Assembly (NCBI GenBank): GCA_029858305.1
Contig: JAOUFI010000014.1
Span: 1 to 40,958 of the forward strand
Reading direction: 5' to 3'
DNA: 40,958 nucleotides
Source: Candidatus Thorarchaeota archaeon
Lineage (GTDB): Archaea > Asgardarchaeota > Thorarchaeia > Thorarchaeales > Thorarchaeaceae
Part shown: positions 2,239-32,536 of the stretch, one piece after another
Layout: each line of letters begins with the position of its first letter
Numbering within the stretch: position 1 is the first letter of the stretch
Notes under the pieces: generated by a model
The model's database searches: none
Told to the model about the DNA's origin: nothing
Seen by the model: only the letters and a program-made list of their open reading frames with translations
Position numbers and translations under genes: made by a program

Positions 2239-2994
2239 CTACATAAAGAGAGCTTTCAGGAGAGGCACTATTGAAAGCACAATTATAACAATTGAAAGTC
2301 CAATTTCTAATTTTCTCGGTTTAGTTCTTAATGAAACCATACTTCCTAGTCGTGAACCAATTCCTGATGTGGTCAGGACAACAAGTCCTTCTAACAACAG
2401 GAGCTGCTGCTGGCTCCAGTAGAGAAGTACTCCAACAAGAGCTGTGAAGATTGCTGCGAATAATGCTGTAGCGATTGCTCTATGCATATCAACATTAAGT
2501 GTGTGCAGAATCGGGACAAAAAGAGACCCCTCGCTCCCTCCTCTCATTCCTGTTAATGTATTAGCTGCGAGAGAACTCGAGAACAAAGCTGCAAATGAAG
2601 GTCTAAGACGTTCTGATGTTGTAGGGGCGATATGATTGAGATTCATTCCTATCACTGAAATAAGTGAAACGAGAATGAAAACGATTGCAAGAACGAGTGC
2701 GGATGTTGACATGGAAAATGCAATTAGTGTTCCTAAGACAGTACCAATAGATCCACCAAGAATCATAAACGCTCCAAGCTTTCGGTCTATGTTTTTCCTC
2801 TGAGATGCTGCTCCTATTAGACTTGAAACCGGAATTGCCATGAGATTCATTCCATATGCAGAAATTAAGGTGAAACCTACAAGGTTCAAAAGTGGTATTC
2901 GAATCGAGCCACCACCAATACCAAAAATTCCACTTCCAAGTCCTGCTACTAATCCTATTAGTCCTGCTAGAAACAACAACACATAATCCATCAT
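2239..2994 (-). CDS. TauE/SafE (DUF81) family permease
   Basis: N-terminal 'SGIFGIGGG' motif, an internal two-fold repeat (second copy 'TGMRGGSEG'), about 8 TM helices, 251 aa. Confidence 0.85.
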   Translation of the reverse strand: MMDYVLLFLAGLIGLVAGLGSGIFGIGGGSIRIPLLNLVGFTLISAYGMNLMAIPVSSLIGAASQRKNIDRKLGAFMILGGSIGTVLGTLIAFSMSTSALVLAIVFILVSLISVIGMNLNHIAPTTSERLRPSFAALFSSSLAANTLTGMRGGSEGSLFVPILHTLNVDMHRAIATALFAAIFTALVGVLLYWSQQQLLLLEGLVVLTTSGIGSRLGSMVSLRTKPRKLEIGLSIVIIVLSIVPLLKALFM

Positions 2995-3161
2995 TCAATT
3001 CTTCCTATTGTGACTCGAACATAGTTGAAGATTAGAACCACCGAATCTGTGTATTGTTTAAGGATTGCTATAGAACGACTTCTTGAACACGTCAAATGAG
3101 TCTAGAATTTTTATTCAGTACTTCGTATTTTGTCGATGTTATCCTTCATCAAGGCATCTGA

Positions 3162-3169
3162 TATATAAG
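3162..3169 (+). promoter_or_regulatory. probable TATA box of the padR operon
   Basis: TATATAAG about 40 nt upstream of the ATG at 3209, just before the inverted repeat. Confidence 0.55.
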
Positions 3170-3180
3170 TAGGAAGAAAG

Positions 3181-3206
3181 CAACTGAGTAGAAATCTACT
3201 TAGTTG
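3181..3206. promoter_or_regulatory. inverted repeat, candidate PadR operator
   Basis: CAACTGAGTAGA-AA-TCTACTTAGTTG, 11 of 12 positions complementary, lying between the TATA box and the start codon. Confidence 0.7.
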
Positions 3207-3208
3207 GA

Positions 3209-3757
3209 ATGATGATGAGTAAGAAGATCAAATTGTTCCTTCCTACACCAGCGAAGCTTACTCCCATCCAACTACTCATTATGATACAACTTCTTGAATC
3301 GCCAAAATATGGCTATGAAATCCTCAGTAGCCTCAGAAATGGATTCAAGGGGTCTTGGGAACCAAAAACTGGAACAATCTACCCCGCTTTACAATCTCTC
3401 GAGAAGAAAGCATTCATCACTTCAAATCTACAGGACAATAAAACTCACTATAGTCTCACGAAACAAGGAAAATCAATGATTGATGACATGAGCAATTATG
3501 TTGCAGAATATATCATGTTCAACACGAAGTTCATTGAGTCAACTGTTGCAAGTTTACCAGCTGACTTCACACAAGAGGTGTTCAGTAAGATTCACAATTC
3601 CGGTATTGATGAAATCATTCCTGAAGGAACAATCCTTGATGCAATAAGCAGATTGTCAAATACGATGCTAAAGCAGGCGTTTCTTCAGCAACGTCAAAGA
3701 ATTCTCAAGAGAAAGATGAAACTTGTGGAACATCATCTGAAGGCACTTGAAACATGA
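3209..3757 (+). CDS. PadR family transcriptional regulator
   Basis: Winged-helix signature 'PKYGYEIL...PKTGTIYPALQSLEKKAFI...YSLTKQG'. Confidence 0.92.
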   Translation: MMMSKKIKLFLPTPAKLTPIQLLIMIQLLESPKYGYEILSSLRNGFKGSWEPKTGTIYPALQSLEKKAFITSNLQDNKTHYSLTKQGKSMIDDMSNYVAEYIMFNTKFIESTVASLPADFTQEVFSKIHNSGIDEIIPEGTILDAISRLSNTMLKQAFLQQRQRILKRKMKLVEHHLKALET

Positions 3758-3766
3758 GGTGATATA

Positions 3767-5173
3767 ATGGAGAACTATGATGTGATAGTTGTTGGTGCTG
3801 GTCCTGGTGGATCCATTGCCGCTCGAGAGTCGGCAAAGAAAGGTTTGAAAACTATATTTTTCGAGCGTGGTCGAAAGCCTGGAGAAAAAAATTCCTCTGG
3901 ATGCGGTCTCGGACCAAGAATGTGGCGCGATTTCGATTTTATGACCGAATTGACACCTGAAGATTGCCCCTCACTGCGACCTGGTGCTGCAGCAAGGAAT
4001 TACTTGGTGAATAATGATGGGGAAGTATCAGGCTATCTAATGACAAAGCCAACTGACTCAGTGACATATGAACCAGCTAGAAGTTGGATTACTATGAATT
4101 GTTACAGGAGTGAATTTGATCCTTGGTTGGCTAAATATGCCACAGATGCTGGGGCGGTTTTGAAGACATCGACACTTGTCACTGGTCTCTTAAAAGAGAA
4201 TGGCAAGGTCTCCGGCGTTATTGATGAGAAGGGGAACAAATACAGCGGTTTGGTCATTGGGGCTGATGGCGCAATTTCTATGGTTGCTAGAGAAAGTGGT
4301 TTGCGACAAAGATGGGAGCAGGAACAGGTCACAATAGTTCCACAATATGACTTTGAATGTCCACCTTCAAAAATAGATGATGTCATGGGGGATGAGGCTC
4401 TTGCTGTCTGGTGGTCTGCAACATTTCCAGCAGCATATCAAGTATTCTTCAACGATGGTTTCCACATTGGTCTAGGTAACTGGATGACTTGGTGGGAGAA
4501 GAATCCCATGCACTATCTCAATCAAGTTGTCGCCTTGAAATATTTCCAGCGACAAATCCGAATACTTGAGGCGAAACCACGAGAATTCCAGGTTCATCTC
4601 CTACCATGGCAAGGTCAACCACATGACACACATGCCGATAATGTGATTCTCATTGGCGATGCTGGAGGATTTCCATGTCCACTCGAAGCCGAGGGAATCT
4701 ACCCTGCAATGGTTACCGCTAGAGCCGCAATTGAAACTGCTGTTGAGGCAATATCTGCTGCTGATGTTTCAAAGGAGTTCCTTAATCTTTATGACGCGAA
4801 ATGGAGGGCAACATCCGTCGGTGAGGAGTTCAAGACAGGTCCTGAATTAGCAAGCATCTGGAAAGCGCTTCCATTCAGTCCATTAAAGACGATGTCATGG
4901 TTTGTTCCAATGCTGATGGAAATAATTGGTGGTATCTTTGACTGGTCGGAGCCCCATGCTGTACGAGTCCGACAGATTGCACGCAGAGTCAAGCAGTATC
5001 TTCCTAATGCAATTCCTTTCATTATGAGAGAAGTCATACCATTGTTGACTGCAATTCTCGGAGAAGAGAATATGAATTTACTCACTGATCCTGAGAAACT
5101 CATCGCAGCAATGCCTGAACTCGAAGAAGCTATTGCCCGTTCATTTGTGGAGAATGATATGGAGGAGAAATGA
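3767..5173 (+). CDS. FixC / geranylgeranyl reductase-like FAD-dependent oxidoreductase
   Basis: GAGPGG dinucleotide motif, FixC-like 'ERGRKPGEKN', 'GADG' and 'IGDAGGFPCPLEAEGI'. A GAGGTG RBS lies upstream. Confidence 0.85.
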   Translation: MENYDVIVVGAGPGGSIAARESAKKGLKTIFFERGRKPGEKNSSGCGLGPRMWRDFDFMTELTPEDCPSLRPGAAARNYLVNNDGEVSGYLMTKPTDSVTYEPARSWITMNCYRSEFDPWLAKYATDAGAVLKTSTLVTGLLKENGKVSGVIDEKGNKYSGLVIGADGAISMVARESGLRQRWEQEQVTIVPQYDFECPPSKIDDVMGDEALAVWWSATFPAAYQVFFNDGFHIGLGNWMTWWEKNPMHYLNQVVALKYFQRQIRILEAKPREFQVHLLPWQGQPHDTHADNVILIGDAGGFPCPLEAEGIYPAMVTARAAIETAVEAISAADVSKEFLNLYDAKWRATSVGEEFKTGPELASIWKALPFSPLKTMSWFVPMLMEIIGGIFDWSEPHAVRVRQIARRVKQYLPNAIPFIMREVIPLLTAILGEENMNLLTDPEKLIAAMPELEEAIARSFVENDMEEK

Positions 5174-5467: not shown

Positions 5468-6913
5468 TTGACAGAAGACATGGTATCTATTATGACCGGT
5501 ATTGTTGGAAGGGACGATGTTTCTGATAACGATGACGTGTTGTCAAAATACTCAGGAAAAACTATACCTTCTCTTGTTGTTTGGCCAAAGACAACTGACG
5601 AAATTGCCCGGATTGTAAGATGGGCGAATTTGAAAAAGATTTCTCTTCTTGTTCGGAGTTCATCAGGACCGAGGCTGCGTGGAGACTGGTTTCCTAAGGT
5701 CGAGAATACTATTATTCTGGATCTAAGTAAGATGGACAGAATTCTACGCATCGACCCACTGAATAAAGTAGTGATGATTGAACCTGGTGTAACATACGGG
5801 AAGCTCTTGAAAGAATTGACAAGAAAGGGACTTCGACCTGCAATACCATTTATTCCTGAGGCTTCAAAGTCTGTTCTATCTGCATGTCTTGATAGAGAGC
5901 CTACGATCATGCCACGATTCCATTGGGATTCCTCAGATCCACTGCTCTGTACAGAAACAGTATTTGGTACCGGAGATGTTTTGCGGACTGGTGCAGCTGC
6001 AGGTCCAGGATCCCTCGAAGAACAATGGGCATCCGGTCAAGCGCAAAAAAATCCTCAAGGCCCATCACAATTTGATCCATTTAGATTGGTCCAAGGGGCT
6101 CAGGGTACTATTGGAATTGTCACATGGATCTCAATGAAATGCGAACAGCTGCCTGAGCACCATAAATTGTACCTTGCAGGTTCCGATAATTTGAACGATT
6201 TCATGGATTTCAACTATGCAGTCCTGCGGAGACGCCTCGCAGATGAACATTTCATGTTAAACAAAGTGAATTTTGAAGCGGCGATAGCAAGCGCTAATGA
6301 TATACCTGAATGGGTACTTGTTATCGGAGTATCTGGTCATGGTATGATAGCAGAAGAGGAGCTTGAATATCGAACTGGCGACATTATGGATATTGCTCGT
6401 GAAACTAATATTATCCTACATGATAGTCTTGGTAAGATTAAGGGAACAGATATCCTAACCCTCCTAAACAAACCTAGTGATGTCGCCTACTGGAAGCTTC
6501 AAGTATACGGTGAGTGTCATGAGATATTTTTCTTAACCACGCTGGATAGAGCGAAAGAATTCTATGAGGTATTTCAAAATACAGCTAACACTGTAGGATT
6601 TCCAATAGATCAGATAGGTGCATATATCCAACCCCTGGCTCAAGGTACGAATACTCATGTCGGATTAGACTTGTTCTATTCACCTGAAGATAAAGAACTA
6701 GTTGAAAAGATGATATCATTATCATCTATGGGTCAAGCTCAATTACTTAACAGAGGCGCATATTTCAGTAGACCTTATGGTTTCATTGTTGATGCAGTGT
6801 TCAAACATGCCTCATCATCCACATTGAGTGCAATGCGTCGTGTGAAGCAAATTTTTGATCCGAGCAACATTCTCAATCCCGGCGCTCTCTGCTTTAAGGA
6901 GGTGCTACAATGA
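5468..6913 (+). CDS. FAD-binding oxidoreductase (GlcD/VAO-PCMH family)
   Basis: 'LVVWPKTTDEI', 'LDLSKMDRIL', 'IEPGVTY', 'GAQGTIGIVT' and C-terminal 'FDPSNILNPG'. The start may instead be the ATG at 5480. Confidence 0.88.
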   Translation: MTEDMVSIMTGIVGRDDVSDNDDVLSKYSGKTIPSLVVWPKTTDEIARIVRWANLKKISLLVRSSSGPRLRGDWFPKVENTIILDLSKMDRILRIDPLNKVVMIEPGVTYGKLLKELTRKGLRPAIPFIPEASKSVLSACLDREPTIMPRFHWDSSDPLLCTETVFGTGDVLRTGAAAGPGSLEEQWASGQAQKNPQGPSQFDPFRLVQGAQGTIGIVTWISMKCEQLPEHHKLYLAGSDNLNDFMDFNYAVLRRRLADEHFMLNKVNFEAAIASANDIPEWVLVIGVSGHGMIAEEELEYRTGDIMDIARETNIILHDSLGKIKGTDILTLLNKPSDVAYWKLQVYGECHEIFFLTTLDRAKEFYEVFQNTANTVGFPIDQIGAYIQPLAQGTNTHVGLDLFYSPEDKELVEKMISLSSMGQAQLLNRGAYFSRPYGFIVDAVFKHASSSTLSAMRRVKQIFDPSNILNPGALCFKEVLQ

Positions 6914-8181
6914 CCCTCAGCGAATTCGAGGATATGATGGATAGTTGTGTTCGATGTTCAAAGTGTAAATTCATCCCACAACTTGTCATTCAGAGCAAAC
7001 GATTCTCGAGCGTTTGTCCTTCAGTCGATTTCTATAATTTTCATGCGTACTCTGGAGGGGGACGCATGATTATGGGAAATGCATACCAAAAGGGTCGCGT
7101 AGAATTCACACAAGAGATGCTAGATGTGCTTTATAGATGTACAAATTGTGGGGGCTGTGAGGTTTCATGCAAATGGGTCTACGACCTCGAACCTAATGAG
7201 GCAATTCATGCGCTCCGTGTTGCGGCTGTTGAAAATGGTGCAGGTCCTATGCCCAAGCACAGAAAGTACATTGAACTTGTTGAAAGAATGAAGAATCCGT
7301 ATGGCGAGAATCCTGCGCAACGAACCTCATGGTTGACTGATGATATTGAGATTGATGCATCTTCAGATACTCTCTATTTTGTTGGTTGCACTGCTGCTAG
7401 TAGACGAGAAGAGATAGCAATAGCTACGGCTAAAGTTCTGAATGCTGCGAAGGAAAAGTTTCGTATAATGGGTTCCGATGAACAATGTTGTGGCTCGCCT
7501 GTCTACAGAGTTGGAGATGAGAAACGTGCTATTCAGATCATGAAGGAAAATATTGCTAGCTTCGAGCAGGCTGGAATAAAGCGCATCATAACTAGCTGCT
7601 CAGGTTGTTATAACATGCTCAAAGTAGAGTATCCTCGATTTGTGGAACATGACATCGAAGTGGTTCATACTGCACAATTGATAGAATCCTTTCTCAAGGA
7701 AGGCAGACTCGAACTAGTAAAAGATGTACCATTGAAGGTAACATATCATGATCCATGTCATCTTGGAAGAATGGCTGAACCATATGAGAAGTGGGAAGGA
7801 GAAAAGATTGAGGTTCTCACTCTCGTGTATATCTATGATCCACCGAAACCTGAGCGTCGAGGCGCGAATGGCGTTTATGATGCTCCCAGAAATGTATTGA
7901 AACAAATTCCTGGTCTCGAGCTAGTGGAAATGGAGCGTATCCGAGAATACTCCTATTGTTGTGGAGCAGGCGGCGGGTGCAAATCTGCCTATCCGGATTT
8001 TGCTCTTACCACAGCAAATGAACGTTTAGAAGAAGCAGAAGCCACAGGAGCAAATACTCTCGTGTCAGCATGTCCCTTCTGTGGTACGAACTTTCTAGAT
8101 GGTATAGAAAACAGGAACTCATCTATGAAATACTATGACCTGATTCAGCTTGTACTACAAAGCATCGGAGGTGAAGAGTAG
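6910..8181 (+). CDS. Fe-S oxidoreductase with 4Fe-4S dicluster and two CCG domains (GlcF/HdrD-like)
   Basis: CVRCSKC, CTNCGGCEVSC, CCGSP, SCSGC, HDPCHLGR, CCGAGGG and ACPFC motifs. Confidence 0.9.
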   Translation: MTLSEFEDMMDSCVRCSKCKFIPQLVIQSKRFSSVCPSVDFYNFHAYSGGGRMIMGNAYQKGRVEFTQEMLDVLYRCTNCGGCEVSCKWVYDLEPNEAIHALRVAAVENGAGPMPKHRKYIELVERMKNPYGENPAQRTSWLTDDIEIDASSDTLYFVGCTAASRREEIAIATAKVLNAAKEKFRIMGSDEQCCGSPVYRVGDEKRAIQIMKENIASFEQAGIKRIITSCSGCYNMLKVEYPRFVEHDIEVVHTAQLIESFLKEGRLELVKDVPLKVTYHDPCHLGRMAEPYEKWEGEKIEVLTLVYIYDPPKPERRGANGVYDAPRNVLKQIPGLELVEMERIREYSYCCGAGGGCKSAYPDFALTTANERLEEAEATGANTLVSACPFCGTNFLDGIENRNSSMKYYDLIQLVLQSIGGEE

Positions 8182-9765
8182 ATGCTTGAGAAGAATGTCT
8201 ATGAGTCTTTCAAGAAAATCGTAGGTGATCAATTCATTTCACAAGATCCGGCAGTGATGGACACCTATGCTTTCCAGTGGTGTAATGAGATTGAGAGTGC
8301 ACAACGAGGAGAAGAGCCTCAGAGGTTCGGAGTTCGTCCTCTTGCTGTTCTTCTTCCTGCCTCGTTAGAGGAAGTCCAGGCCATCGTTAGGCTTTGTAAT
8401 GAACATGATGTCACATTCAAAGCTCACACAACAGGCATGGGTCCTTGGGCTGGTGTCAGTAATCTCCGATCTATCCAGATTGATCTTAGAAGGATGAATC
8501 GAATTCTTGAGATTGATGAGAAGAATATGTATGCAGTAATTGAACCATACGTCACGAATGCAGAACTCCAAAGTGAACTCTTCAGGTATGGACTCATGCA
8601 TCATGCACAGGGAGCAGGTCCTCAGACATCTCCGCTAGCTAGTCATACATCTTTTGTAGGACCTGGCTTTACTTCTCCATATACGGGCTTTAGCGGCAGG
8701 AACGTTCTTGGCGTTGAATGGGTTCTTCCCTCAGGTGACATCCTCCGACTTGGCTCCTATGATTATAATGGGAAATGGTTCTCGGGTGATGGTCCAGGCT
8801 TTAGTCTAAGGGGCATCATGAGAGGATGGCTTGGAGCCTATGGTGGTCTTGGCGTGTTCACAAAGGCTGCTATTCGACTCTTCTCTTGGCCAGCTCCGAA
8901 AGACTGGAAATGGAAGACTGGAGGTACAATTCCTAACTATGATTGGGAAGTTCCTCCATACTGGCAGCTATATGTTTTGAACTTTGAAGAATGGGAAGAG
9001 TACCAATCAGCAATGTATGAGTTGAATGATAGAGAGGTTTGTATGGTTGCCACAACATCTGCTCCTGAGGGTCTGGCAGCCTTGTTCACTAATACAAAGA
9101 CAGAGGCAATCGAGGCTATTTTTGCGGGTCTGCTTGCTAGGACAAGAAATTACATTGTCGTTCTAGTAGCAGCGCATACTAGGCGTGAATTCGAGTTTAG
9201 GGCAAAATTGGTGAAACTCATTCTGGAGAAATATGGCGGTAACGATCTCATTGAAGAAGGGGTGATAACTCCAAAACCAATGCATTATGGCGAAACCGTG
9301 CGCAACATGCTAGGTGCACATGCATTCCGCTTCTCCAATTGTTTCCAAAGCACTCACGGCGGAATGGATACTATTTCTATGGCAGTTAGACTTGCTCAAT
9401 TGAATCAGCCAGTGAAACAGAAGTATATCGAAAAAGGTGTAATTGGTGATGATAGAGGACTCGGTGTTTGGATAACGAGTTATGAATCCGGACACATGGC
9501 TCATATGGAGGTACCAACAGTCTACGATCCCACATCAGTGAAATCTTGCTTGGGCTATGCGGAATATCAAGATGAATGCAACAAAATGGACCTTGATCAA
9601 GCACTTGGCATGCCATTCTTCATAGTAGGTGATGAAGTTCACGAATTCTACGCAGAAAGAACTATGCATTATCCTGATTGGTTGAGAAAGATCAAAGCAT
9701 CTTTTGATCCAAAGGGTCTCTCTGATCCAAGTCACTATGTGAAAGGAGTGAAGAAAGATAAATGA
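8182..9765 (+). CDS. second FAD-binding oxidoreductase (GlcD/VAO-PCMH family)
   Basis: 'AVLLPASLEEVQAIVRLCN', 'IDLRRMNRILEID', 'GGLGVFTK' and 'KIKASFDP'. A GGAGGTG RBS lies upstream. Confidence 0.88.
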   Translation: MLEKNVYESFKKIVGDQFISQDPAVMDTYAFQWCNEIESAQRGEEPQRFGVRPLAVLLPASLEEVQAIVRLCNEHDVTFKAHTTGMGPWAGVSNLRSIQIDLRRMNRILEIDEKNMYAVIEPYVTNAELQSELFRYGLMHHAQGAGPQTSPLASHTSFVGPGFTSPYTGFSGRNVLGVEWVLPSGDILRLGSYDYNGKWFSGDGPGFSLRGIMRGWLGAYGGLGVFTKAAIRLFSWPAPKDWKWKTGGTIPNYDWEVPPYWQLYVLNFEEWEEYQSAMYELNDREVCMVATTSAPEGLAALFTNTKTEAIEAIFAGLLARTRNYIVVLVAAHTRREFEFRAKLVKLILEKYGGNDLIEEGVITPKPMHYGETVRNMLGAHAFRFSNCFQSTHGGMDTISMAVRLAQLNQPVKQKYIEKGVIGDDRGLGVWITSYESGHMAHMEVPTVYDPTSVKSCLGYAEYQDECNKMDLDQALGMPFFIVGDEVHEFYAERTMHYPDWLRKIKASFDPKGLSDPSHYVKGVKKDK

Positions 9766-10847
9766 AAGACAATATCAATCCAAACGTAAAAGAAGGGTGG
9801 ACGGGTCCTGGAAGAAGGGATGGGGTGATTCATCCTCTTAGACCTGAAGATGATGCGTTGCACATCGATGTAGGCAAGAAAAACCAATTCGAATGGTGGT
9901 ATTTCGATGCTCATCTCGATGGTGGCTACACTCTTGTTGCATTCTTCTACGCTGCAAATCCTAATCCCGGTTTGAACTCAGGCAAGACTGGCGTTGAGCT
10001 TGTTCTTCTACGTCCGGATGGTCGGAAGACACAGAGGTTCATCAAGTACAAAAAATCAGAATTCTCTGCATCACGTGAAAAAGCTGACGTGAAGATAGGC
10101 AAGAACTATCTCGAGGTTGATTACTCTCAAGGAGACCTTCCTATCTATCGAATTCATCTCGATGAGGAGGAACTTGCTTTTGATTTGACATACAAATCCC
10201 TAGTTGTTGGATGGAAACCTGGAACAGGCTTCTCACACTTTGCAGATCTTGGTTATTTCGCGTGGGTCGTTCCGTTTGCTAAAGCTGATGTGAGCGGTAT
10301 AGTTCGTGATGGCAATAAGACAATAAATGTCACGGGTGTTGGGTATCATGATCATAATTGGCTTAATTTCGCCTTCGCTACAATAATCGAGTACTGGATG
10401 TGGGGCAGGGTATACTCCGAGAATTTCACTCTCTCCTATGCATTCATACAGTGCAATCAGAAAGTTGACCGTCATGTAGTGAAGGTACTAATGCTAGCGA
10501 AAGGAAAAGATGTCATCCTGAGTTCTGGTGAGTTTGATTTCAGACAGGAGAATTTCGAATACAGCAAGGCGGCTGGTCATAGTTTTCCAAGAACAATTAT
10601 CATTACCAATCCAGAAAAAGGTGAAATCAAACTAGATGTTGCTAGAATCCTTGAGGCTGAGAGCATGCTTGCCAACTTCAATATAGCATTAAGATTCATA
10701 GCTAAAAACATACTTAGGATGAAACCCGGTTACTTTAGACTGAATTCAGATTTTGCACTAAGGATAACACATGATGGAAACACCTACACGGAGGTTGGTA
10801 ACACACTTCACGAGATTGTGACATTCAAGCAGTTAGGTCCAAGTTAG
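9762..10847 (+). CDS. CrtC/AttH (hydroxyneurosporene synthase / lipocalin-like double barrel) family protein
   Basis: Family motifs 'EWWYFDAHLD' and 'GVGYHDHNW...W.WGR'. ATGA overlap with the upstream gene. Confidence 0.75.
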   Translation: MKDNINPNVKEGWTGPGRRDGVIHPLRPEDDALHIDVGKKNQFEWWYFDAHLDGGYTLVAFFYAANPNPGLNSGKTGVELVLLRPDGRKTQRFIKYKKSEFSASREKADVKIGKNYLEVDYSQGDLPIYRIHLDEEELAFDLTYKSLVVGWKPGTGFSHFADLGYFAWVVPFAKADVSGIVRDGNKTINVTGVGYHDHNWLNFAFATIIEYWMWGRVYSENFTLSYAFIQCNQKVDRHVVKVLMLAKGKDVILSSGEFDFRQENFEYSKAAGHSFPRTIIITNPEKGEIKLDVARILEAESMLANFNIALRFIAKNILRMKPGYFRLNSDFALRITHDGNTYTEVGNTLHEIVTFKQLGPS

Positions 10848-10856
10848 ATGTAAGTA

Positions 10857-11255
10857 CTATTTCCTCTTTATCGATGTCAATGAATCTATACTTGTTTCAA
10901 CGTCATCAGGTGATAGTATCTCATCTGTGAGTAGTTGTCTCAGGATGCTAAGATGCTGGTCATCAAGCATGTAGTCTTCTGTTTCAAGTACATTTAGTGT
11001 GGCACTATGGTTCCACTCAGCATCTTCATCGTCTATTGTGTGCAAGGTGACTACATGATACGGACCTGCTCGGCCAACCATTAGGCGCATATTACTATAT
11101 GTTACTTCCTTCATTTCACTGCCTACAAATCTCCTGGCATAGGCCTGTATTGCGGCTATGAAAGAGCCAAAGAGATCAGGATCAACTCGAATATTTTCAA
11201 GACCAACTGATGCCTGATATAATCCTCCATCATCAAATACGATCATGCCCTTCAT
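10857..11255 (-). CDS. longin-like small protein (Asgard type)
   Basis: Pattern beta(GMIVFD)-beta(GLYQAS)-helix(DPDLFGSFIAAIQAYARRF)-beta-beta-beta-helix, with no leading helix. ATG at 11255; the ORF track uses the GTG at 11261. Confidence 0.65.
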   Translation of the reverse strand: MKGMIVFDDGGLYQASVGLENIRVDPDLFGSFIAAIQAYARRFVGSEMKEVTYSNMRLMVGRAGPYHVVTLHTIDDEDAEWNHSATLNVLETEDYMLDDQHLSILRQLLTDEILSPDDVETSIDSLTSIKRK

Positions 11256-11392
11256 GCGCACAACACCAATCTTTAGATGATTTTCTTTCTTATGAATCTT
11301 AAAACACTATTAATGCGTGTAATAGGCATTTTGTATAGTATTCTCTATAGAAATTTTGATACACAAAGAGATTTCAACTAATGTGTCATATC

Positions 11393-11779
11393 TTAACCGA
11401 GGAGTGCTCCTACTTCTCTGGCGTATTTTCGCATCTGAGTGACTGCAAGACCCATTGATGTCAAGTCCCGAGCAGAACCCATTAATAGGAATTCCCCTGC
11501 GTGCGAGAGAACCACAAAACCTTGCTTCCCTCGAACTACTACTTCATAGAGTTCATCAAGTCCGAGCTTTCCAGCTGCCATATCTCCTGTCATGAGGAGT
11601 GCAGCACTAACTGCAGCCATGAGATCTGGATCTGCATCCGAATCTTCTGTTGCGAAGTACGCAAGTTTTACGCCTTGCTTACTTACAACTGCGATTGCAT
11701 CTAGGTCTGCGTAGTTCGTGAGCCCCATTAAAAGCTCCACTAATTCCTTTTCCTTTGCTGGGTCTATATGTGATGACAT
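11393..11779 (-). CDS. roadblock/LC7 (MglB/LAMTOR-like) domain protein
   Basis: Roadblock pattern 'LDAIAVVSKQG..LA...DPDLMAAVSAALL...LYEVVVRG..GFVVL....MGLAVTQMRKYA'. GGAGTG RBS before the ATG at 11779. Confidence 0.9.
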   Translation of the reverse strand: MSSHIDPAKEKELVELLMGLTNYADLDAIAVVSKQGVKLAYFATEDSDADPDLMAAVSAALLMTGDMAAGKLGLDELYEVVVRGKQGFVVLSHAGEFLLMGSARDLTSMGLAVTQMRKYAREVGALLG

Positions 11780-11818
11780 TATTATCACTCCCTAATTGGA
11801 TTAGCATATCATTTGAAA

Positions 11819-12748
11819 TTACTTTGCTACAAGTTTCTTGCCCTTCTTGGTCTTTGAATCAGCTGGTGCTGCGCTACCATCTGTTTCAGATTTGAAGAAG
11901 GTTATCAAATCACTAAGGCGTTCTTTCATTTCCGCCTTTATAGGACTCAGTATTGCATCAGGTGTGCCTTTGAGAAGCTCGATGCCAAGAACTCTCCCAT
12001 CTTTTACGATGACTCTTGGAATAAAGCCTTCTGCCATAAATGTTCCCTCTGGGGGATCTCTGACTTTCTCAATTCGTCTTTCGATTTTTTCCTGACCAAA
12101 GACCGCAATTTTATGCTCTGCAACTGTGTAGAGATCGTTGTAAACAATTACGAGTTCTCTTTGGTACCCTTCTGGTGGGTCAACGGTTTCCAACTCTTTT
12201 AACATCTCAGCAATTTCTCCCTGAGAAACAGGAGTCTTTGGAGTAGTGATTGGAGGTGGGGAAGATGATGCACGGGCAGAAGATGCTGCAGGCTGAGATC
12301 TTGGCGGTAGATCTGTTTCATGCTTAGGTGTCATGGCCTGTTCTCTCCTAGCTATTTCATCAGTGGATCTTGGAGGTGGTGCTGACATAGTTGCGGCCGC
12401 AGGTTCCTTCTTTGGTTTTGGAGGTGCTGGCGGAGGCGCCTTATCTCCAGGTTTCATGATGCGAGTGGCAGCAGTTGTTCCATTCAACGCAGAGAAGAAT
12501 GTTGGCGGCTCCTCGCCCTCATCCAAAGGCCTTACCTTGAAGTGAAATCCATACTCAGTCCTGAGGTTAGTAGCAACTCTAGCTCCAATGAATTTCACTC
12601 TAACACCTGCTTGGCTTCCTTTCCAAAGATAGATACTCTTAGTTTCATCATCTACAACACAAACAACGAGATTTGAATCCAAATCATCCTTTGTGAGTTC
12701 TATCTCATTAAGGGTTCCATCTTCCTGGACCTCATAACCTACAACCAT
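11819..12748 (-). CDS. single gelsolin-domain protein with Pro-rich linker and C-terminal domain (1DGelX-like architecture)
   Basis: aa 1-90 'DLDSNLVVCVVD...IYLWKGSQA...DEGEEPPTFFSAL' match a gelsolin/villin repeat. A P/A/S-rich linker and a globular C-terminal segment follow. Confidence 0.8.
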   Translation of the reverse strand: MVVGYEVQEDGTLNEIELTKDDLDSNLVVCVVDDETKSIYLWKGSQAGVRVKFIGARVATNLRTEYGFHFKVRPLDEGEEPPTFFSALNGTTAATRIMKPGDKAPPPAPPKPKKEPAAATMSAPPPRSTDEIARREQAMTPKHETDLPPRSQPAASSARASSSPPPITTPKTPVSQGEIAEMLKELETVDPPEGYQRELVIVYNDLYTVAEHKIAVFGQEKIERRIEKVRDPPEGTFMAEGFIPRVIVKDGRVLGIELLKGTPDAILSPIKAEMKERLSDLITFFKSETDGSAAPADSKTKKGKKLVAK

Positions 12749-12985
12749 AATCTATCACTACGCCAATGTTGACCTTACCTGTTGCAGTGTGGCAACTCAA
12801 GACATATACCTTGTGTGTATTGCCAGTGTACAACATAAGCCTTCTTTGTGCTATATGATTGTTATTGTGTTAGATATGCCTCGGTATTGTATTGATTTTC
12901 CACTAAACTTCCCCCACATTTTCCAATTCATTAATGTGAAATACTCTTATGAGTGGAGTCGTACTATATGTTTTGGTTGGATGCG

Positions 12986-13999
12986 ATGCAAGAGCGACCT
13001 GATTCTATCCATATGCTAGCTCGAGGGCTCGATGAAACAGATAGATTGAGTAGGAAACAAATTCTCTTGGGATTATTAGGATCTACCGCTCTGATGATTG
13101 TTTCTACTTGGGGTGTTCTTTCTTTACTGAATTTTGTGCAAGTCTATCCTGTGGATCCAATTAAGATTCTACCATACACGTTATACATGCTTGCTGGTTC
13201 AGTACTTTCCACAGTCATCGCTTTCATTCTGTGCATAGTTGTGATTCGTTGGCCTCGGATTGTTAACATTCCTCTAAGGATACATCGCTATGCGAAAAAA
13301 GGTACAGGTGAGTATTTTCTTAGTCCTGAATTCACAGATCAAACATGGTCAGTTGTCCTTCGGCGGTCACTCTACGGATCGATTCTTGTAGTTGGGATTT
13401 CACTCACAATCCTTGGTTTCGATATGATGGTAGCATCCACTGATTTTCTTCTCATTAGTGGAACATACTTGATGTTCATCAGCATCATTATACTCCCATT
13501 CACTCTTCTTGAATTCTATTATGGGCCTTGGCTTGTGAAAGATTCCGGTTTATATCATCTTGATGAAAGGGACAGGTCGTTGAGTAATGTTGGTGACGAC
13601 CTCGAAGATATTTTGGAATTCTTTGCAGGCATTGATATTCTCTTCATACTTCTTGAGCTCACAATCAGCGTTGGTGGTACTGCTCCTTGGCTTCCAGTCT
13701 TCATAATCCTAATTCCACTCGGTCCGCTCTTCTCCATTGTTCTCAATTTCACACTCGTCTTCATGCTTTTCAAGAATAAAGCTACATCCTCTATGCTCAA
13801 ATTCCTAAATCATGATTGTGAAGTTCCTGATATGGTCTCAACGCCTGATTACATACGCAGTCGTGTTTTGGCATTAATAGATCGCGAGTTACTTGTGAAG
13901 CCATCAATAGAAGAACCTGATGTATTACCTCTTTCAGAAGTGAATGCTTCTGTTCTTATAGAAAATGACATTGAGCTAGTTATTGAGGATGACGACTGA
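12986..13999 (+). CDS. hypothetical polytopic membrane protein with acidic C-terminus
   Basis: About 6 hydrophobic segments. Start uncertain (12953 GTG to 13013 ATG). Its 3' end overlaps the convergent thiQ by 24 nt. Confidence 0.7.
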   Translation: MQERPDSIHMLARGLDETDRLSRKQILLGLLGSTALMIVSTWGVLSLLNFVQVYPVDPIKILPYTLYMLAGSVLSTVIAFILCIVVIRWPRIVNIPLRIHRYAKKGTGEYFLSPEFTDQTWSVVLRRSLYGSILVVGISLTILGFDMMVASTDFLLISGTYLMFISIIILPFTLLEFYYGPWLVKDSGLYHLDERDRSLSNVGDDLEDILEFFAGIDILFILLELTISVGGTAPWLPVFIILIPLGPLFSIVLNFTLVFMLFKNKATSSMLKFLNHDCEVPDMVSTPDYIRSRVLALIDRELLVKPSIEEPDVLPLSEVNASVLIENDIELVIEDDD

Positions 14000-31219: not shown

Positions 31220-32536
31220 TTAAATAAAACCTAGCATAAACAATACCAGGTACATTAGTATGAATGATGCGATGATTATCGAGTCTCTGGCGACGATTCT
31301 CACAAGTCTTGTTTGTCTATCTCCTAGATAGACATAGATCATTTTGTTGAGAACAGAGATGATAGTTGCAATGATTATCGCCATGGCTGCTTCAGGATAG
31401 AGAGCAGGATTAAGCATGAATACAGTAGCAGAGCTGGCTACGACTGCACCTGCTGACACAAGTCCTCCAATAATTGCAGCAACAATGAGACCAGTCCCAC
31501 TGTAGGTCTGAGTGAAGAGCAGTTGAATTAAGTATACACCTGAGAAGATTGCTCCAAATCGTAGGGCAGGTCCGAGCTCAAATGGTGATACAAGTTTGAG
31601 GTCATACAGAGCCTTACTAGGCTGTTCATGGTCTCTATTTTCTTGGAACATGCGGATCATGCTCATGATAATTAGAATGGCCATAACTCCAATGTACAAC
31701 CTAAAGAGCCAGAAGGTTCTATCAATAATCAGTAGCAGGAATCCGTTCCTCAGAGACATGGCTATATTTGCTAGATTGACCGATACTGCGATTTTTCCAG
31801 CTCCACGTCTCTCTTCCCTGACATAGAAATCAGTTAGGCTTGATACAGCCGCCTCGCTACTTGCTAGTCCACCAAAGATACCAAAGAAGTAAATCCCTCT
31901 GTCTCTGTACTTCTTTACTAGCAAATAGTTTGCGAATTTGATTGTCAGGAGAATCACAATCAGAACATAGATTTGAAATGCGGGAAACTCGATGATTCCA
32001 ATTTGAATTATCTGTGGGACTAGTGGCCATGCAAAGAGGATTACTACACCAAGTTCGACTGCACTGATCATCTCATCACGCGTGATAACCTCAACTGCGT
32101 GAGCAAGCTCTTCTTTGAAGCCCAGAATTAGAAACACCAAGAACGAAACAGCCATTGCAAATACCGAAAGCATACCAAAGAGTTGACCTGGACTCGGCGT
32201 ATCGAATCCGACAAGCACTCCCAAGACGAATGAAATGGAAAATACAAGTGGTGTTGTCAGACCTTTTCCCATGGTTCTGAAAAGTTTGTAATAGACTTGA
32301 GTCGCAACAAGGATGGTCGATATGACGATTCCATAGACAAGAATCACGGGATTGGATATGAGCTCTGACATGTAGGCGGTCATAGTTCCCAGTAGACTAT
32401 GTAGACCAAATGAGCGTACACCAGCAGTTCTACTTGCCTCTAATTTCTTTTGGCGTTCGAGACCTATTAGAGCTCCAACTACAAAACCTATGAGTGCTTT
32501 CACAATTAAATCCGCACTTGCTAGTAGCTCTTGCAA
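31220..32536 (-). CDS. MgtC/SapB N-terminal + DUF4010 membrane protein
   Basis: 'GALIGLER', 'AGVRSF', 'GLTT', 'GGLASSEA' and 'SPFELGPALRFG'. Confidence 0.88.
   Translation of the reverse strand: MQELLASADLIVKALIGFVVGALIGLERQKKLEASRTAGVRSFGLHSLLGTMTAYMSELISNPVILVYGIVISTILVATQVYYKLFRTMGKGLTTPLVFSISFVLGVLVGFDTPSPGQLFGMLSVFAMAVSFLVFLILGFKEELAHAVEVITRDEMISAVELGVVILFAWPLVPQIIQIGIIEFPAFQIYVLIVILLTIKFANYLLVKKYRDRGIYFFGIFGGLASSEAAVSSLTDFYVREERRGAGKIAVSVNLANIAMSLRNGFLLLIIDRTFWLFRLYIGVMAILIIMSMIRMFQENRDHEQPSKALYDLKLVSPFELGPALRFGAIFSGVYLIQLLFTQTYSGTGLIVAAIIGGLVSAGAVVASSATVFMLNPALYPEAAMAIIIATIISVLNKMIYVYLGDRQTRLVRIVARDSIIIASFILMYLVLFMLGFI

Follow-up and report, generated by a model that had tools for sequence, protein, structure and literature searches.

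How Asgard archaea control their actin, and whether this control is linked to the many small GTPases and roadblock/longin proteins of these organisms, is an open question that bears on the origin of eukaryotic cell organisation. A locus of Candidatus Thorarchaeota archaeon poses it in a concrete form. In the 40,958 nt of contig JAOUFI010000014.1 (assembly GCA_029858305.1) analysed here as a whole, hereafter the window, three consecutive open reading frames (ORFs) lie on the minus strand: a gelsolin gene (GEL), a Roadblock/LC7 gene (ROBL) and a small gene (LNG) that a sequence-only reading of the same DNA had called longin-like. That reading had noted three minus-strand genes in a row with gaps of about 40 and about 140 nt, and had proposed that they form one module connecting polarity and GTPase signalling to actin remodelling. 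The positions agree with ours, 39 nt separating the GEL stop from the ROBL ATG and 137 nt the ROBL stop from the LNG ATG. Do the three genes belong together, and what would they do? The adjacency of GEL and ROBL was found to be strongly conserved across wide distances within the Asgard phylum, whereas LNG is a clade-specific, local addition, and the three genes are not a conserved unit.

11819..12748, minus strand: GEL, 309 aa, 1DGelX architecture (gelsolin domain, Pro-rich linker, domain X and basic tail), recognised from the ORF, a PDB sequence match, an AlphaFold2 (AF2) model and full-length orthologues in most Asgard families
11393..11779, minus strand: ROBL, 128-aa Roadblock/LC7 protein, recognised by Pfam PF03259 and by PDB chains 7f8m and 9jue
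10857..11255, minus strand: LNG, 132 aa, member of a multi-copy Asgard family, probably of the longin/roadblock superfamily, a lineage-specific neighbour

The gelsolin-roadblock pair across the Asgard phylum

GEL carries a single gelsolin-type domain and, C-terminal to it, a domain X that is not of the gelsolin type, which is the arrangement of 1DGelX proteins. In the PDB sequence search its residues 1-88 match the solved Thorarchaeota ProGel chain 7c2f_B (E 6.3e-13; ~35% identity between the gelsolin domain and ProGel), other Asgard gelsolins and, more weakly, eukaryotic gelsolins. ROBL scores 43.1 bits against PF03259 (Roadblock/LC7; cut-off 23), a match that the whole-genome scan places at contig positions 11480-11737, and it also matches, by sequence, the solved chains 7f8m and 9jue (E ~7e-7). 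The gelsolin and roadblock identities proposed earlier are therefore confirmed. Despite 10 PF03259 matches in its own genome, ROBL among them, a search with ROBL at E ≤ 1e-18 in a sample of 151 Asgard genomes returned a single match in most of the 117 genomes having one, so that ROBL is a distinct roadblock family, usually present in one copy per genome.

In the same sample GEL was searched at E ≤ 1e-15, and the two genes were called adjacent when the listed match positions lay less than 600 nt apart. The count uses 150 listed GEL matches, from which 16 short ProGel-type ones (query 1 to ~100) were dropped; 36 more are unlisted, and some genomes counted as lacking GEL may have one. Among the matches listed, both genes are present in 98 genomes and are adjacent in 75 of them, in every case on the same strand with ROBL downstream. 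Adjacency holds in 10 of the 17 families whose genomes have both genes: f1 (25/25), f2 (1/1), f3 (4/4), f9 (21/21), f10 (1/1), f12 (13/17), f15 (4/4), f21 (3/3), f24 (2/2) and f26 (1/1). Identity of ROBL between the families that keep this order is ~35-57%.

Two further sets of loci were compared. Within the genus, ROBL directly follows the 1DGelX orthologue in 20/20 loci. Among 16 loci of other families (13 genomes), seven were counted as adjacent; ROBL is directly downstream and co-directional in six, with spacers of 2-30 nt in five and 225 nt in one; one locus shows a weaker roadblock paralogue convergent at 4 nt, another a weaker roadblock gene divergent at ~1 kb, and ROBL is absent from the remaining eight. 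Additionally, a scan of named records with a five-sequence ROBL alignment, whose search pattern leaves out a Loki-type motif variant, gave 80 loci. In 68 of these the gene immediately upstream of ROBL is GEL, namely in the 61 Thor-type loci without exception (L037-L097) and in those of Candidatus Sifarchaeum (one), Hermodarchaeota (two), Odin (two) and Promethearchaeota (two). Most close relatives of the f9-type ROBL carry the name Promethearchaeota or Lokiarchaeota in their source, which suggests, as a lead, that f9 is Loki/Promethearchaeia-like and that the pair exists in Loki-like genomes too.

The genes beyond GEL and ROBL differ between lineages and the pair alone is retained. In 20 Thor loci outside the clade that carries LNG (within L053-L096), an aminotransferase-like gene of ~400 aa follows ROBL after ~30-140 nt; an HD-domain-like gene follows it in the Hermod and Prometheo loci, and a convergent phosphoglucomutase-like gene in Odin. 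These neighbours, judged by their N-terminal residues, were set aside as unrelated housekeeping genes. A gene similar to the aminotransferase-like one was also seen, convergent, after a 424-aa gene of a Heimdall locus (L104:4245-5339), and it may be a remnant of an older synteny around ROBL.

The spacer between the two genes is 2-107 nt in most lineages. In the window, the mechanical ORF of ROBL begins at GTG 11788; its start is the ATG common to all orthologues (N-terminal Met-Ser-Ser), which is preceded by a Shine-Dalgarno-like motif:

11784..11792, minus strand: Shine-Dalgarno-like GGGAGTGAT, 5-13 nt before the ROBL ATG and within the 39-nt GEL-ROBL spacer, read from the sequence

Of 17 aligned loci, 14 have a motif of the GGAG/GAGG type 5-12 nt 5' of the ROBL ATG; one of the 17 could not be scored, its start being different. 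Its recurrence at the same place in a short spacer would fit internal initiation of ROBL on an mRNA shared with GEL, and the two genes are most likely expressed from one transcript.

ROBL as a candidate partner of 1DGelX

If the pair has a functional meaning, the part of GEL that could accommodate a dedicated partner has to be considered, and the protein is divided as follows:

12482..12748, minus strand: gelsolin/cofilin-type domain, GEL residues 1-89
12224..12481, minus strand: Pro/Ala/Thr-rich linker, predicted disordered, GEL residues 90-175 (pLDDT 37-64; indels, low conservation and variable length among orthologues)
11876..12223, minus strand: domain X, GEL residues 176-291, a compact helix, five strands and a long helix (AF2 pLDDT ~85-95)

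In the AF2 model (25 orthologues), the gelsolin domain (pLDDT >90) is joined by the disordered linker to a separately folded domain X and a lysine-rich tail. Domain X is predicted to comprise H176-188, E195-202, E205-216, E219-228, E242-249, E252-261 and H263-291; in the alignment of the 25 orthologues R245 is invariant and P192, G194, G235, G251, E257 and L259 are nearly so. This compact model differs from the coiled coil by which domain X was modelled in the Thorarchaeota 1DGelX described by Akil et al. (2020, PNAS; PMC7444086, main text), a protein that has the same architecture as GEL. A Pfam search up to E 10 gave no matches for domain X and the ESM Atlas gave nothing informative; domain X is so far an orphan fold with relatives detectable solely among 1DGelX orthologues. 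As for activity, the published Thorarchaeota 1DGelX binds rabbit actin with a Kd of 7.7 uM, nucleates filaments and severs them in a Ca-independent manner (PMC7444086, main text), and by analogy the GEL of the window would be expected to bind and sever actin. The same genome was also seen to carry two short single-domain ProGel-type gelsolin genes (G000:C16:1967-2224 and G000:C127:16604-16867), 49% and 34% identical to GEL 1-90.

We lean, by a modest degree of confidence, toward a two-gene unit in which ROBL is a dedicated subunit or regulator of 1DGelX, probably acting via domain X or the basic tail, with LNG as a clade-specific add-on. ROBL would work as a dimer, like its relatives, and as a regulatory subunit or adaptor of 1DGelX; by docking on the tail or on the orphan domain X it would control where or when the gelsolin domain acts on actin filaments. 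ROBL could possibly also relay the state of a small GTPase encoded elsewhere. A complex prediction of ROBL with domain X (residues 170-309) returned 0.11 and 0.04, against a mark of 0.32, and counts neither for nor against binding.

Several observations weigh against such a partnership. GEL and ROBL are apart in 23 of the 98 genomes, comprising four of f12 and all those of f5 (0/2 adjacent), f6 (0/1), f13 (0/3), f14 (0/3), f16 (0/5), f22 (0/4) and f25 (0/1), and families f7 and f19 carry gelsolin with no ROBL match at E ≤ 1e-18; neither gene depends on the presence of the other. Among the named loci, 12 have ROBL without GEL (8 Heimdallarchaeota, 2 Promethearchaeati, 1 'Bathyarchaeia' and 1 'archaeon', that is 12 of the 19 non-Thor loci), two of them with upstream DNA too short to judge. 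Related genomes in the adjacency counts are not independent, and the Loki-like family f9 has spacers of 100-320 nt, which makes co-transcription less certain there. No GEL-ROBL fusion was found at E ≤ 1e-5 among longer proteins, which is weak evidence. Profile comparison of domain X with ROBL, LNG and the gelsolin domain showed no similarity, so that a pairing of ROBL with domain X through a common fold is unsupported. Finally, ROBL does not stand beside a small GTPase as a roadblock of the MglB type does: of the 22 Ras-family (PF00071) matches in its own genome none lies on the contig of the window, and other roadblock paralogues of the genome do adjoin Ras-like GTPases (G000:C186:1040-1546 with 1630-1881, and G000:C129:31004-31234 with 31427-31912, one pair co-directional and the other divergent). 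Since these paralogues adjoin GTPases and ROBL adjoins gelsolin, ROBL is the odd one, its conserved partner gene being an actin regulator.

The strongest of the alternatives is co-expression without contact, in which ROBL would work in an MglB-like manner with a distant small GTPase and would be co-regulated with 1DGelX for the same process, such as cell shape or protrusions. In prokaryotes, it is general knowledge that conserved and tight adjacency of this kind most often marks the subunits of one complex, and here it is co-directional, with very short spacers kept in 10 families while the other neighbours change; the usual single copy of the ROBL family per genome also speaks against this alternative. 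On the other side, no resemblance of domain X to roadblock partners could be detected and the genome holds 22 Ras-family matches from which a distant partner might come. Roadblock proteins are annotated by their sources, and known, as regulators of Ras-like GTPases, and the part of PMC10933270 that treats the Asgard strain MK-D1 states that, in general, its GTPases do not share operons with roadblock or longin genes. By this statement a distant GTPase partner is normal, and a neighbourhood devoid of GTPases is compatible with a GTPase input. We regard co-expression without contact as an unlikely explanation, yet one that retains appreciable weight.

Known systems can be compared with ROBL. The bacterial MglA-MglB polarity module and the archaeal GTPase-roadblock pairs belong to the same roadblock/LC7 fold family; in MglA-MglB the roadblock gene lies beside the GTPase, whereas the conserved neighbour of ROBL is an actin-severing protein. 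In eukaryotes, the small roadblock dimers of dynein LC7/roadblock and Ragulator (LAMTOR) act on a cytoskeletal machine as adaptors or provide a platform for GTPases. ROBL is a small roadblock protein like them; their context is dynein or Rag, none of which is found here, and we know of no gelsolin partnership for dynein LC7 or LAMTOR roadblocks. Roadblock dimers as adaptors or platforms for GTPases are also treated in the text covered of PMC10933270. Liu et al. (bioRxiv 10.1101/2020.10.19.343400, main text) described a conserved operon that combines a LAMTOR1-like roadblock gene with genes for a Rab-like GTPase and a DENN protein, placed three roadblock/longin families among the Asgard core genes and described an ESCRT neighbourhood as well.

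LNG and the question of a GTPase input

LNG itself has no matches in Pfam, NCBIfam or the PDB sequences. Its close homologues are 103 proteins, all unnamed or labelled Thorarchaeota 'hypothetical protein', and a profile search of 1.8 billion representatives gave 33 at E ≤ 0.001. The AF2 model is weak (mean pLDDT 50; E15-18, H26-44, E56-63, E66-74, E83-90, H99-108, H116-131), and fold searches with this poor model gave no matches; the order of its elements, strand-(strand)-helix-strand-strand-strand-helix-helix, would be that of a longin domain. Weak profile signals point the same way. LNG 1-75 aligns with ROBL 26-96 in hhalign (E 3.5e-4, probability 37%) over a common core that excludes the first helix of ROBL, and ROBL proteins start scoring (E ~1e-3) at the second iteration of a local hidden Markov model (HMM) of the LNG family. 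When 26 family members were compared with Pfam, the matches were all sub-threshold: four to Fuz_longin_1 (best E 0.0021), three to MAPKK1_Int, two to Intu_longin_1 (best 0.021) and one to Robl_LC7. In the ESM Atlas, the second-nearest cluster (score 0.93) bears the name Roadblock/LAMTOR2, and 22% of its members carry Fuz_longin_1. LNG is thus a probable member of the longin/roadblock superfamily, and the earlier call of a longin-like gene stands to that extent; its assignment as a longin proper is a lead.

The distribution of LNG is narrow. It follows ROBL in 18 of the 20 same-genus loci, one contig ending early and one locus having other ORFs, and it adjoins ROBL solely in one Thor clade (20 of the 61 named Thor-type loci). 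In none of the 16 other-family loci does it lie next to ROBL, a distant family member being found 3.2 kb upstream in L027. Conserved adjacency therefore holds for GEL and ROBL and not for the third gene. Thor genomes have several copies of the LNG family, 2-13 matches each at E ≤ 1e-5, either as small proteins or as the N-terminal domain of proteins of ~300, 440 and 620-700 aa; the best-scoring copies of other Thor genera are found at other places in the genome. Additionally, LNG may have its own promoter in the spacer that separates it from ROBL, where an AT-rich block with partial conservation and a GGT-rich motif are found:

11256..11392, minus strand: ROBL-LNG spacer, 137 nt, AT-rich, with a partly conserved block at ~11305-11326 and a GGT-rich motif before the LNG start, from an alignment of 16 same-genus spacers

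In the same alignment the LNG start codon varies between ATG, GTG and TTG.

By gene context, on the other hand, the LNG family is linked to GTPases, because the closest paralogue of LNG in the genome (G000:C160:2339-2773, 32% identity) sits in a conserved GTPase cassette. This cassette of four genes (G000:C160:908-3834) encodes a Ras-like GTPase, a zinc-ribbon protein of 93 aa, the LNG-like protein and a membrane protein of 472 aa. It was found again in 10/10 further Thor loci (L117-L126) chosen for LNG-family matches of high score, the GTPase standing at one end or the other. A similar C-terminal Trp-x-x-(Lys/Ser)-x-Phe tail was seen in the zinc-ribbon protein and in many members of the LNG family; the LNG of the window lacks it. 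A separate observation is that Thor genomes contain adjoining genes of ~300 and ~440 aa that both start with an LNG-like domain (G001:C2:167626-168810; G015:C33:10166-11371; G041:C19:16562-17761; others), and their products may be a heterodimeric longin-like multi-domain pair.

A comparable arrangement was found away from GEL. In five Heimdall-labelled or related loci, a gene with an LNG-like domain follows the ROBL orthologue after 24-31 nt with no GEL upstream; the protein has 424 aa in four loci and is cut by a contig end in the fifth, the LNG-like domain being its first ~100 residues (ROBL with the gene that follows it: L099, L101, L103, L104 at 2483-4204, and L105; L102 cut by the contig end). 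Its N-terminus compares with LNG at an hhalign probability of 78% (E 1.8e-5) and at a local HMM domain E of ~1e-26 after one iteration; the protein also has a winged-helix region (HTH_45, best E 1.3e-5). Given the Thor-clade LNG and this Heimdall arrangement, the pairing of a roadblock with an LNG-type protein arose at least twice.

These data bear on the module of the sequence-only reading, in which ROBL and LNG would form a roadblock-longin heterodimer, a platform similar to Ragulator or TRAPP that recruits a small GTPase to 1DGelX. Its favourable side consists of the longin-like order of strands and helices in a low-confidence model, the alignment of LNG to the ROBL core, the sub-threshold matches of LNG relatives, the Roadblock/LAMTOR2 cluster, the GTPase cassette of the closest LNG paralogue and the Heimdall loci. 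Against it stand the restriction to one Thor clade, the 137-nt spacer with its own partly conserved block, the location of the best LNG-family matches elsewhere in other Thor genera and a window with no GTPase genes, and we consider a three-gene module improbable. Under the two-gene unit that we prefer, LNG would be a later, clade-specific insertion that may pair with ROBL as a heterodimeric platform; it would be a paralogue drawn from a longin/roadblock-like family whose other ties are to small-GTPase cassettes.

The proposed link to GTPases and polarity is divided: gene context ties the LNG family to small GTPases, and the rest is an analogy between families. Among the neighbours in the 16 other-family loci no GTPase genes were seen in the ORF maps, not all of these neighbours having been scanned with Pfam. 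For GEL and ROBL the GTPase step is pure analogy, because no Ras-family match lies on the contig while the other paralogues adjoin GTPases. An extended form of the two-gene reading, in which a ROBL dimer would bind domain X and switch severing and nucleation on or off upon a small-GTPase signal, helped in some lineages by LNG or the Heimdall 424-aa protein as longin-like partners, is for us a speculative proposal with little probability. Neutral synteny, an inherited arrangement without functional meaning, would agree with the split of the pair in seven families and with lineages that have each gene without the other, but it is very hard to reconcile with order, strand and short spacing kept in 75 of 98 genomes despite ~35-57% identity of ROBL and with flanking genes that were not kept, and we give it hardly any credence.

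Surroundings of the locus and meaning of the pair

The cluster is bounded in the window by genes on the opposite strand:

12953..13999, plus strand: 348-aa protein with hydrophobic stretches, no Pfam match, divergent from GEL
9762..10847, plus strand: CrtC-like lipocalin gene, 361 aa (Pfam CrtC, E 1.1e-4), convergent on the other side

The latter is the last of three packed plus-strand genes at 6910-10847, with starts and stops touching or overlapping, for a Cys-rich Fe-S protein (423 aa), an FAD-oxidase-like protein (527 aa) and the CrtC-like lipocalin-domain protein (361 aa), the first two named by eye from their sequence. The trio looks like an operon unrelated to GEL and ROBL.

The sequence-only reading knew of no description of the linkage, and none was found in the literature covered on Asgard gelsolins, roadblocks and GTPases (PMC7444086, PMC10933270, PMC9433394, PMC11914678, PMC12962969, PMC4917890 and Liu et al. 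among them, in the passages covered). In these passages PMC7444086 treats 1DGelX alone, the words operon, neighbor and roadblock being absent from its main text; Liu et al. describe other conserved neighbourhoods, with no gelsolin-roadblock neighbourhood mentioned in the passages covered, although supplementary tables may list neighbourhoods. The parts are known, and the conserved GEL-ROBL pairing appears to be undescribed.

Among the Thor gelsolins, 1DGelX is the most active in vitro, and its domain X is without a known function or partner. A conserved, dedicated ROBL behind 1DGelX is therefore a concrete candidate for that partner, and one that is cheap to test, given the small size of the two proteins and the fact that one laboratory has already purified relatives of each. 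Binding between them would provide the first operon-level link of an actin regulator to the roadblock superfamily in archaea; if they do not bind, the conserved pair would still mark probably co-regulated genes of Asgard cell-shape biology. Should the reading in which a GTPase switches the action of ROBL on domain X be true, the pair would be an archaeal, pre-eukaryotic forerunner of GTPase-controlled actin remodelling and of the roadblock adaptors on cytoskeletal machines.

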